This document shows positions 3,295 through 64,000 of a stretch of DNA of 64,000 bases, piece after piece. The stretch lies in the NCBI GenBank assembly GCA_046351595.1, contig JAXLYE010000002.1, positions 1,368,022 through 1,432,021 on the forward strand, given 5' to 3'. Source of the stretch: Polyangia bacterium (GTDB taxonomy: Bacteria > Myxococcota_A > Polyangia > Palsa-1104 > JAEUJZ01). A program made the translations under genes and the position numbers. Each line of letters opens with the position of its first letter. Position 1 is the first letter of the stretch. The notes beneath the pieces are model-generated. The model was not told the origin of the DNA, ran no database searches, and saw only the letters and a list, made by a program, of their open reading frames with translations.

Positions 3295-3732
3295 TTAGAC
3301 CTTCAGCGCCAGCTGCATCGGGTGCGTGCCGGCGCGGAACAGCGGGCGCTGCTCGAGCAGCCAGGCGCGGGCCTCGTCGCGGGCGCGGAAGAAGCGGGTC
3401 GGCACCTGCTTGCCGCTGATCAGCTGGATCGCGCGCAGCACCAGCTCGACGCCGATGACAAAGACCGGGCTGATGCCGCTGACCGCGGTGGCGCCGATCG
3501 CGCGGTGGCTGCGGTGGAACTCGGCGAGGAAGCGCCGGGCCTCGGGCGGCAGGCCGAGATCGGTCAGGGCGTCGACCTGGAGCAGCGCATAGCCATACCG
3601 CTCCTCGACGGCGGCGCACTCGCTGAACAGGTGCGCGAGCTCGGCGCGCGTGACCAGGCCGCTGCCCTCCCAGAGGACCAGATCGCCCTCGATGCGGTAG
3701 CGCTGCTGACCGATCCGCTGCCAGTCGCTCAT
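3295..3732 (-). CDS. Hypothetical protein (145 aa)
   Basis: Clean 145-aa ORF convergent with the peptidase gene, 15-bp gap. Not low-complexity. No recognisable motif. Confidence 0.4.
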   Translation of the reverse strand: MSDWQRIGQQRYRIEGDLVLWEGSGLVTRAELAHLFSECAAVEERYGYALLQVDALTDLGLPPEARRFLAEFHRSHRAIGATAVSGISPVFVIGVELVLRAIQLISGKQVPTRFFRARDEARAWLLEQRPLFRAGTHPMQLALKV

Positions 3733-3861
3733 GGTGCCGGCGGGTCGGCCTCGCCGCCCGCCGCCTCCAGCGTCTCATCTTGCGCCGGCGCTGGCGAGCC
3801 CCGGCGCGATCTCGTGCGCGTGCGGGGCGGTGCGGCGCCGCGGGTGTGGTAGCTTGCGCCC

Positions 3862-60147: not shown

Positions 60148-61122
60148 TCACTCCTCGACGCGGCAGGAGGCGATGACGTCGTCGAGGATCTGGGCCAGGC
60201 CGATCGTCGGCTGCCAGCCGATCTGGCGGTGGATCTTGCGCAGGTCGGGCACGCGGCGCGGCATGTCCTCGAAGCCGGGCTCGTAGGCCTTCTCGTAGGG
60301 GACAAAGACGATGGGGCTCTTGCTCTCGGCGCGCTCGATGACCTTCTGGGCCAGGCCGAGGATGGTGATCTCCTCGACGTTGCCGATGTTGAAGACCTGG
60401 CCCGAGGCGGTCTTCGACTCCATCAGCGAGATGAGCGCGCGCACCGCGTCGCTGACGTGGGTGAAGCAGCGCGACTGCGCGCCGTCGCCGAAGACGGTCA
60501 GCGGCTGCCCGCAGAGCGCCTGCTTGACGAAGGTCGGCACCACCATGCCGTACTGGCCGGTCTGGCGCGGGCCGACGGTGTTGAACAGTCGCCCGACGAC
60601 CGTGGGCAGGCCGCGCTCGCGGTAGTAGGCAATCGCCAGGAACTCGTCGATGAGCTTCGAGCAGGCGTACGACCAGCGGCCCTTCGACGTCGGCCCGAGC
60701 ACCGGGTCGCCCTCCTCGGAGAAGGGGATCTGCTCGCTCTTGCCGTAGCACTCCGAGGTGCTGGCGATGAACACCGGGCGCTTCTTCTTCTGCGCCATCT
60801 CGAGCACCAGCTCGGTGAGCTTGATGTTGGTCTCGATGGTGCGCACCGGGCTCTCGACGATGAGCTTGACGCCGACGGCCGCGGCCAGGTGGTAGATGAC
60901 GTCGGCGTCGTCGACGAGCTCGGCGAGCAGCGGCCGGTTGGCCATGGTGTCGATGACGTAGCGGAAGCGCCCCTTGTACTGCTCGCCGGTGAGGTGGCGG
61001 ATGTTGCGGATGGTGCCGGTCGACAGGTCGTCGATGACCAGCACCTCGTGCCCCAGCTTGAGGAGCGCCTCGGCCAGGTGCGAGCCGATGAAGCCGGCGC
61101 CGCCGGTGATGAGGTAACGCAT
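60148..61122 (-). CDS. NAD-dependent epimerase/dehydratase, UDP-glucuronate decarboxylase (UXS)/UDP-sugar 4-epimerase-like
   Basis: MRYLITGGAGFIGSHL...YHLAAAVGV...SECYG...YACSKL (the SDR-extended YxxxK). Confidence 0.85.
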   Translation of the reverse strand: MRYLITGGAGFIGSHLAEALLKLGHEVLVIDDLSTGTIRNIRHLTGEQYKGRFRYVIDTMANRPLLAELVDDADVIYHLAAAVGVKLIVESPVRTIETNIKLTELVLEMAQKKKRPVFIASTSECYGKSEQIPFSEEGDPVLGPTSKGRWSYACSKLIDEFLAIAYYRERGLPTVVGRLFNTVGPRQTGQYGMVVPTFVKQALCGQPLTVFGDGAQSRCFTHVSDAVRALISLMESKTASGQVFNIGNVEEITILGLAQKVIERAESKSPIVFVPYEKAYEPGFEDMPRRVPDLRKIHRQIGWQPTIGLAQILDDVIASCRVEE

Positions 61123-61488
61123 GGAAACCCTTTTTCCTTATACGGTCTGTCTGTGCAGTCGTTCGGAGGGCCCGGCGCAGCCCCAGTCTCACGAGCTCTC
61201 CCGAGACTCTCACGAGGCTGTCGCGCGGCCCGACGGCGCCGACCTGGCGTCGCAGCGCGCGCACCGTATCGCACCCCGCCACGCCCAGGCAACGGCCCAT
61301 CACGCGCCCGGCCCGCTCCCTCGCGCCCCTGCGTCGGCGCCGGTCGCCCTGCGTCGGCATCCGGTCAGTGCGGGCCCGGCCGCGGTCCCGCGGTTCCGGA
61401 AGGCTCCGGAAGGCCCCGATGTCCGTTCCGTCCGCCCGCAGGACGCGCACAAAAAGTCACCCGGTCGCTGCGACCCGCGCGCGGCTTC

Positions 61489-61517
61489 TTGACAGCAGGT
61501 TGCTGGGCAGATAGGGT
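61489..61517 (+). promoter_or_regulatory. Sigma70-like promoter (TTGACA-17 bp-TAGGGT) about 620 bp upstream of the DEAD-box helicase ATG
   Basis: cTTGACAgcaggttgctgggcagaTAGGGTcc. Perfect -35, 17-nt spacer, 4/6 -10. No credible ORF lies between it and 62136. Confidence 0.45.
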
Positions 61518-62135
61518 CCAATCGAGTTATCGAGTTCCTATAGATCGAAGCCGCTCTTGCCCTGGACCTGCTCTGCACTCGACGAAGCCGCGCGAAGCTC
61601 CCAGCCTGCTGGCCAGCTCCACGGACGCGCTTTCGCCGCTGCAGAGGCCGACGCCGCAGACCGAACCGGCGGCGGTCGCAGGATCCGGGAAGCCCTCCGG
61701 GCGGGCGGCTTGCGAATGAGGGAACCCGCCCGAGCAGCCCGCGTGGACCGCTGCCACACGGCCGCCGACCCGGACGCCGCGACCGCCGCGGTCGCCGAGC
61801 CGGGAGCTCACGCCTCCGTTTCCAAGGGCGCGCGCGCACCGGGCGCCGCCGCGTCCCGCCGAGTTGTCGGCGACACCACAGATCGGGGCCGAACAAGAAC
61901 AAGGCCCGCGCCCGAACGGATCACCCCGGGGCCCGCAGCGCGTCGCGCCGACGCGCTGGTCGGGAGGCCCCCTTGCACACCCGCCGAGCTGCGTCGTTGC
62001 GCTGAGCACGACGCGCCCGGGCTGCCGGATCCGGTCCGCCTCACGGCGACCGCGAAGGGGGGCTCCCCCACATCCGGACAGCGGGCCCGCGCTCCGCTTG
62101 CGCGCCGCACCGCCGGTGGGTCACAGAGAGGTTTT

Positions 62136-64000
<1,865 letters not shown>

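Follow-up and report, generated by a model that had tools for sequence, protein, structure and literature searches.

In E. coli, the mRNA of the DEAD-box RNA helicase gene deaD (csdA) has an 838-nt 5' untranslated region (UTR), and its expression is negatively autoregulated both at the level of message stability and by Rho-dependent termination (Ojha & Jain, RNA 2020, PMC7430678). In E. coli toiL-topAI, a leader open reading frame (ORF) couples translation to Rho-dependent termination (PMC12121999), and a report on M. tuberculosis describes translated upstream ORFs (uORFs) that shape Rho termination (bioRxiv 10.1101/2022.06.01.494293). The subject here is the predicted leader of a DEAD-box helicase gene in a Polyangia bacterium, found in a 64,000-nt stretch of contig JAXLYE010000002.1 (the whole of which is called the window), and a TTG-initiated ORF that spans this leader (61557..62249, + strand). 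Another leader ORF tied to Rho-dependent termination is that of mgtL/mgtA. Longer uORFs are known from secM-secA, mifM-yidC2, and vemP-secDF2. These monitor uORFs have 95-170 codons, are mostly unconstrained, and control the exposure of the downstream ribosome-binding site. Each has a conserved arrest peptide as well as a targeting signal, and terminates ahead of the start site that it controls.

The upstream ORF of the window has 230 codons and is read in frame -1 with respect to the helicase. Its stop codon (TGA, 62247-62249) is located 110 nt beyond the helicase ATG. DNA around twelve orthologous helicases was fetched for comparison, in addition to loci L001 and L002 from a first scan; the frame counts are made on 13 loci, the window and the 12 orthologous loci. 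In the initial annotation no credible ORF was recognized in this region, only low-complexity shadows. This judgment does not survive the comparison, since the homologous frame is open in all 13 loci. The TTG frame runs through the leader without a stop in 13 of 13 loci, while the other five frames do so in only 3 of 65 cases. The ORF has 144-230 codons across the loci and always ends at +86 to +121 nt past the helicase ATG.

The phase of the frame is also kept. In one subgroup (group A) the distance from TTG to ATG is 1 mod 3 in 9 of 9 loci, which have 8 different lengths (421-580 nt). In the other (group B) it is 2 mod 3 in all four loci, with four values between 332 and 347 nt. Both subgroups use one stop site in the helicase N-terminus despite their different frames, and the stop is often built from A/T-ending codons (CTA, GAT AGT), which are unusual in these genes rich in G+C at the third codon position (GC3). 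Where leaders are alignable, the gaps between them have lengths of 6; 15, 3, 6, 6, and 18; 3 and 3; 6; 3 and 6; and 9 and 6 nt. The frame is thus conserved with frame-preserving indels, as it is in coding genes. In L165, gaps that shift the frame are compensated further along the leader and the frame remains open. Under dinucleotide-preserving shuffling, the probability of an open frame is 0.05-0.26 per locus for the first ten loci. For three lineages fetched after the idea had formed it is 0.026, 0.048, and 0.018, or ~2e-5 jointly. On this comparative evidence the frame is under selection to stay open. The start and position of the ORF are conserved, it overlaps the gene it may regulate, and the two are predicted to share a transcript, as is found in regulatory uORFs.

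By the same comparisons, it is where the ORF starts and stops, its openness, and its phase that are conserved, but not its peptide. Substitutions at the first, second, and third codon positions in pairs of upstream ORFs are spread evenly (21/24/15, 46/53/45, 25/27/30, and 43/41/38), while in the helicase core, used as control, they pile up at the third position (3/0/56, 6/4/90, and 14/6/111). GC content by codon position is 0.73/0.75/0.75 in the upstream ORF versus 0.66/0.46/0.98 in the helicase; real genes in these genomes have GC3 of 0.78-0.98. With composition-corrected protein scores, the ORF products compared across lineages show no similarity beyond that of off-frame translations. Three marks of a coding gene, third-position substitution excess, GC3 bias, and amino-acid similarity, are therefore absent. 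No ORF of the gap between the helicase and its upstream neighbour matches Pfam or NCBIfam, which also disposes of a pseudogene of a known family, and gene callers call the upstream ORF in no relative. It contains no conserved internal motif and has neither the short length nor the sensing motif of familiar uORFs. A gene on the opposite strand of the gap was considered and rejected, as the - frames hold stops in most loci. Where leaders can be aligned, their divergence is close to that at helicase third positions (for example, 29% vs 26% for L161/L163; 38% vs 36% for L162/L164), and the leader interior seems to evolve at about the helicase synonymous rate. Because the sequence drifts at a neutral rate, the peptide is not what matters.

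Transcription of the leader is predicted to start from a sigma70-type promoter with the -35 hexamer TTGACA at 61489..61494 and the -10 hexamer TAGGGT (TAnnnT) at 61512..61517 (+ strand). Its -35 box, -10 box, and 17-nt spacer agree with the pattern of such promoters (TTGACA-like, TAnnnT, and 16-18 nt). The near-consensus promoter proposed in the initial annotation is exactly at 61489-61517, unique in the window, and conserved in 12 loci. TTGACA-N17-TAnnnT occurs once in the 64 kb on both strands, and none of 100 shuffles contains a match. It is the sole + strand candidate in the gap even with a relaxed -35 box; a strict promoter scan overlooks it because the -10 box has just three of the six consensus bases. 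All 12 clade loci have one TTGACA, a 17-nt spacer (18 nt in L169), and a -10 box starting with TA (TAGCTT, TAGCGT, TACTTT, TACCGT, TAGTTA, or TACTTA), 372-580 nt upstream of the helicase ATG. Sister-clade loci L083 and L003 also carry the helicase promoter. Its upstream neighbours vary: a divergent LAM_C-like gene, a co-directional Fe_bilin_red gene, a kinase, and others. The promoter is kept whichever gene adjoins it and therefore travels with the helicase. Downstream of the promoter, L161 and L163 align at 73% over 729 nt, whereas their sequences upstream share a single short alignable block.

Phylogenetic footprinting thus confirms the promoter and supports a long leader. Since the promoter is conserved at the orthologous position, the leader of ~612 nt in the window is supported; in relatives the leaders inferred from promoter conservation are ~365-575 nt long, all with predicted start sites. 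The leader of about 610 nt in the initial annotation agrees with the promoter position and with a helicase ribosome-binding site conserved in relatives, whose nearest helicases in genome, metagenome, and protein collections are, among the matches listed, 60-78% identical to that of the window. The predicted transcription start, placed at ~61524-61525 from the -10 position, is followed by a short, less GC-rich 5' stretch before the upstream ORF (61524..61556, + strand). GC content is 53% in the first 45 nt of the leader and 76% in the remainder, and dips to 0.56 over 61450-61600. A tandem repeat, ATCGAGTT x2, is found at 61521-61536.

The start of the upstream ORF is part of a conserved 5' element, AGATCGAAGCCGCTCTTGCCC, at 61542..61562 (+ strand), which appears as GTAGCCTGCTTTTGTCCC in orthologues. 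In its alignments, one of which was read without the L172 row, the T-T-G at 61557-61559 are the sole invariant columns. The invariant TTG lies ~33 nt past the predicted start in the window and 26-48 nt across the loci. According to nhmmer the element occurs once in the window; without a second copy there, it bears no mark of a regulon-wide 'cold box'. In the window, the 5'-most 74-97 nt of the predicted transcript are less well folded than shuffled sequence (z +2.0 and +2.3), and over the first 70-90 nt this holds in 11 of the 13 loci. This poorly folded 5' end looks like an accessible ribosome-loading region. At the other end of the leader and within the upstream ORF, the helicase has a Shine-Dalgarno sequence, AGAGAGG, at 62125..62131 (+ strand), 5 nt ahead of the ATG; AGAGG, CGAGG, or AAAGG with a T-rich spacer is found in all orthologues. 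Its predicted probability of being unpaired is 0.49 (relatives, 0.24-0.69), so that no sequestration is predicted, and the start-site region folds with z of +0.65 and +1.23. Pairing of the pyrimidine-rich 5' element (CUCUU, CUUUU) with this Shine-Dalgarno was also considered and rejected: in a manual comparison across lineages it meets mismatches in place of compensatory substitutions, and the Shine-Dalgarno is not predicted to be sequestered.

In sister Polyangia and Kofleriaceae lineages the space of the leader is occupied by a gene, here called X, directly upstream of the helicase (L083 2414-2989; L003 1566-2156; L004 5149-5784; L084 ~2260-2826). X encodes ~190-210 aa with one predicted membrane helix, a basic N-terminus, and conserved W..FS..W and RCRF.EL motifs, and belongs to no Pfam family. 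It has coding periodicity (GC1/2/3 of 0.65/0.46/0.73) and clear protein conservation. In L083, L004, and L084, X starts with TTG in a homologous context (TTG-TCN or TTG-ACG); in L003 it apparently starts with GTG nearer to the transcription start. The stop of X lies 3-25 nt ahead of the helicase start, except in L004, where the two overlap in ATGA, and X is apparently co-transcribed and coupled with the helicase. The upstream ORF of the window is most likely a relic of this small membrane-protein gene. In the simplest history, the protein function of X was lost in the clade of the window, while its frame could not be broken without damage to helicase expression.

We consider it probable that this relic has stayed translatable for the sake of ribosome transit, which would protect the leader or gate the helicase start. 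The housekeeping-type promoter at 61489-61517 would start the transcript at ~61524, and ribosomes would load on the weakly structured 5' stretch of ~33 nt and initiate at the weak TTG (61557). They would then translate 230 codons across the GC-rich leader, cross the Shine-Dalgarno and ATG of the helicase (62125-62139) in a frame different from its own, and stop 110 nt inside the helicase gene (62247-62249). Such transit would avoid a long ribosome-free stretch of the kind on which Rho-type termination and decay usually act (polarity), and it would also control access to the helicase start, so that helicase output would track initiation at the TTG. Transit may activate the helicase start by unfolding or repress it by occlusion. 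A further proposal, to which we give a little less than an even chance, is that the leader is a 'translated spacer', a cis element whose frame polarity by itself would hold open, without any selection for the protein. An upstream gene that became functionless would be barred from pseudogene decay, as any stop would leave hundreds of ribosome-free bases and turn the helicase off. Its frame could stay open for a very long time while the sequence drifts, and would now serve as a 150-230-codon regulatory uORF extending over the helicase start. So far as found, there is no earlier description of such a 'translated spacer' in the literature.

Several points weigh against a kept and translated frame. 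The frame of the window is by itself unremarkable (shuffle P 0.25), and the case for the ORF is a comparative one, in which openness in the window alone is not significant. The open frame was spotted post hoc, and the clean test set is the three lineages. Open frames are cheap in such DNA: the left third of the gap (61123-61488) is stop-free in all three + frames. The relatives are metagenome assemblies with partly common ancestry and not fully independent. The leader interior of the window is alignable with no relative, so that what ties the window to the set is its two conserved ends together with the phase and the stop site. No Shine-Dalgarno is found before the TTG at 61557, and together with the lack of codon bias this means that any translation of the TTG ORF may be weak. 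A profile of X does not detect the upstream ORFs, with E above 3 as for off-frame controls; descent from X is therefore a positional link only. C-over-G richness of the Rho-loading type was considered and is inconsistent between lineages (GC skew 0.01 to -0.19). The comparisons show that the promoter, the 5' element, and the frame are conserved, that the sequence evolves neutrally, and that X occupies the matching position; from them we infer where exactly transcription begins, that the leader is translated, that Rho or decay takes part, and which way regulation runs.

Of the other explanations, a plain long untranslated leader acting by RNA structure, thermosensing, or autoregulation in the manner of deaD or cspA has the most in its favour, and we regard it as unlikely. 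The promoter and the leader length are conserved, E. coli deaD is a precedent (PMC7430678), and the open frame could be a by-product of the GC-rich, TA-poor composition, in which stops are scarce. Two folds in the window somewhat surpass shuffled sequence: one is a hairpin with a perfect stem of 10 bp at 61936-61958 (z -2.3 for 61930-61964) and the other a multibranch fold at 61962-62067 closed by GGGAGGCCCCCTT / AAGGGGGGCTCCC (z -2.7 for 61960-62070). Both were picked post hoc and are not conserved in relatives. A near-invariant block of ~50 nt, GGCCTGCGGGCACGCCACGCGACAGTTCCGGGCGCAGTCGCCGCGTGTTGTC, is found in the middle of the otherwise drifting leaders of the L161 subgroup (L161 ~3692-3760 and matching positions in L163, L165, and L002). 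It can form a GCGAC...GTCGC hairpin; a similar stretch is found in L170 (~2770-2815), and the window has no clear counterpart. However, the leader as a whole (627 nt) folds no better than shuffles (z -0.51), and the interior gives z of -2.6 to +1.6 over the 13 loci, without trend. The inverted repeat that the initial annotation described as strong, CGGGCGGG-19-CCCGCCCG, does exist, at 61698-61732 rather than 61690-61725, but 63 of 200 shuffles fold equally well (z -0.46). Neither a sequestered Shine-Dalgarno (that of the helicase is ~50% unpaired) nor a conserved structure or excess folding energy of an RNA thermometer is found. With z near zero and an interior that diverges near the helicase third-position rate, the structured or thermosensing leader of the initial annotation is not borne out. 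Its other suggestion, an independent small RNA (sRNA), finds no backing either: Rfam 15 covariance models give no match at E up to 10 (60900-62400, both strands), and no terminator-like site, which an sRNA would have within the leader, is found on the + strand of the gap. Composition also fails to explain 13 open frames of 13 against 3 of 65, the fixed phase, the gaps in threes, and the fixed stop site.

The ORF might instead encode a functional, fast-evolving, disordered, arginine-rich protein, a diverged orthologue of X, making the region an unannotated gene. Its position is the same as that of X; frame, start, and phase are kept; the first ~11 codons have synonymous-looking changes (S..A..DG); and the products are without exception strongly basic, with net charges from +9 to +33. 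The codon-position and GC3 data given above, the cross-lineage scores no better than off-frame controls, and the absence of matches to the X profile and to protein families make it quite improbable, as does the fact that much of the L165 ORF is read in another frame than that of L163 and is still open. Programmed ribosomal frameshifting, by which the upstream ORF would be fused to the helicase as a long N-terminal extension, would make use of the ~100-nt overlap with the helicase frame at a conserved place and of the U-run (UUUUU) directly before the ATG. It is barely conceivable. The shift would have to be +1 in group A but -1 in group B, and the fusion was dropped because of these opposite directions; the codons before the stop (CGC, AGC, TGC, GGC, CTC) are unable to re-pair after a slip, and the helicase keeps its own Shine-Dalgarno, ATG, and N-terminus, also where X ends before the helicase. 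Finally, the genomes of this group are GC-rich with long intergenic gaps, and no nucleotide match to the window region is found in 160 related loci, as would be expected of an ordinary spacer with a chance promoter-like match and no function. The promoter motif, unique in 64 kb, absent from the shuffles, and conserved jointly with the 5' element in 12 loci, leaves very little room for this view. On balance, we favour the reading of the upstream ORF as a new form of uORF or polarity control on a DEAD-box helicase leader, in which the frame is conserved while the sequence evolves neutrally.

The gap extends from the start of the epimerase gene to the helicase ATG (61123-62136); its end at 62135 in the initial annotation was off by one, the ATG being at 62137. 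To its left is a divergent gene for an NAD-dependent epimerase/dehydratase (60148..61122, - strand; Pfam GDP_Man_Dehyd/Epimerase, E 2.6e-60; GC3 = 1.00), whose protein has no exact match on record. To its right the helicase gene (62137..64000, + strand) continues past the end of the window (Pfam DEAD, E 1.3e-43; Helicase_C, 2.5e-28). While the genes of the window have GC3 of ~1.0, GC content in the gap is flat over the three codon positions. A comparison of the leader with related genomes, as suggested in the initial annotation, finds the promoter, the 5' element, and the frame conserved, but not the interior sequence or structure, and synteny with the epimerase is not shared: the epimerase is found beside the helicase in no relative (tblastn against 80 genome loci, E 1e-20, no match). 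A blastn search of the gap against the 80 genome loci gives no match better than chance.

The helicase consists of a Pro/Ala-rich N-terminal extension of ~125 aa followed by the DEAD + Helicase_C core. It is a DEAD-box protein near the CshA, DbpA, and DeaD models of NCBIfam and under every equivalog cut-off (CshA 434 bits with a cut-off of 646, DbpA 395 with 524, DeaD PRK11634 361 with 989, and CsdA 301 with 890), so that DeaD/CsdA orthology is not indicated. Its start, M-(S/N/T)-E, is kept across clades, and only the first ~20 residues of the N-terminus are conserved among relatives. Low-complexity sequence is found at 62137-62510 (Pro/Ala-rich) and 63850-64000 (an Arg/Asp/Ser/Glu-rich repeat tail, SRDEG...RRSRDE...). 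A gene with TPR and Zincin_1 (PF06262) domains is repeatedly located 3' of the helicase (L161 7543-8652, L163 6655-8403, L169 5525-6952, L170 5424-6710, and L173 6240-7526). This recurrence suggests a conserved downstream partner; the window stops short of that position.

The upstream third of the gap (61123..61488) presumably holds the epimerase promoter and 5' UTR. Its sole promoter candidate is a weak one, TTGCCT-18-TACGGT, on the - strand from 61292 to 61263. GC content is 73% overall and 0.77-0.83 at 61200-61400. Direct repeats are found here (CCCTGCGTCGGC x2 at 61327 and 61347; GGYTCCGGAA x2 at 61392-61411), and codon-position GC is mildly uneven at 61210-61450, where there is no believable ORF. 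Relatives share a 35-nt block, GTCAGGCTCGTGCCGGATGTTTTGCGAGAACCACA, located 190-290 nt 5' of the -35 box of the helicase promoter amid otherwise unalignable intergenic DNA (L161 3213-3247, L163 3199, L165 1843, L167 2213, L002 5144, and L168 954). It is absent from the window, and may be part of a divergent neighbour or a separate element.

If the proposed mechanism is true, this leader would be a clean natural case of selection on the act of translation and not on its product, over a frame ten times the length of the usual leader peptide. It would provide a concrete explanation of how a 0.6-kb leader escapes premature termination, and it would carry the theme of long-leader control of DEAD-box helicases, of which E. 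coli deaD is so far the one case worked out, into an uncultured myxobacterial lineage. It also carries a caution for annotation: this frame was dismissed as a GC-rich 'shadow' by gene callers based on codon bias and by human readers, and only comparative evidence (openness, phase, and indel lengths) exposes it.

Among known systems, the E. coli deaD leader, to which the initial annotation likened this one, is a fair analogy. Both belong to DEAD-box helicases of the same broad group, with a single sigma70-type promoter many hundred nucleotides upstream, and the long leader, the site of control in deaD, would be one here too, with premature termination or decay as the likely lever. However, the two leaders have no sequence or structure homology, as judged from the lack of an Rfam match, and that of the window is spanned by a conserved open frame overlapping the helicase start, while a uORF goes unmentioned in PMC7430678. 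The cspA-type thermosensors and RNA thermometers likewise have long leaders on an often cold-induced gene class, but conserved structure, Shine-Dalgarno sequestration, and excess folding energy are lacking in the window. With regulatory uORFs the window ORF shares its place upstream on the same predicted transcript, and translation rather than the product would decide downstream expression. Known regulatory uORFs have few to ~50 codons and sense stalling at particular codons, whereas the ORFs of the window type have 144-230 codons, occupy the whole leader without an internal motif, and end ~100 nt inside the main gene. Unlike the monitor uORFs of secM, mifM, and vemP, the window ORF has no conserved peptide motif beyond the first few codons. 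The coupled X-helicase operon of the sister lineages resembles it in the promoter, in the homologous TTG of L083, L004, and L084, and in an upstream frame directly before the helicase. The frame of the window's clade differs from X in having no conserved protein or periodicity, and in its stop, which has moved from before the helicase ATG to ~100 nt after it.

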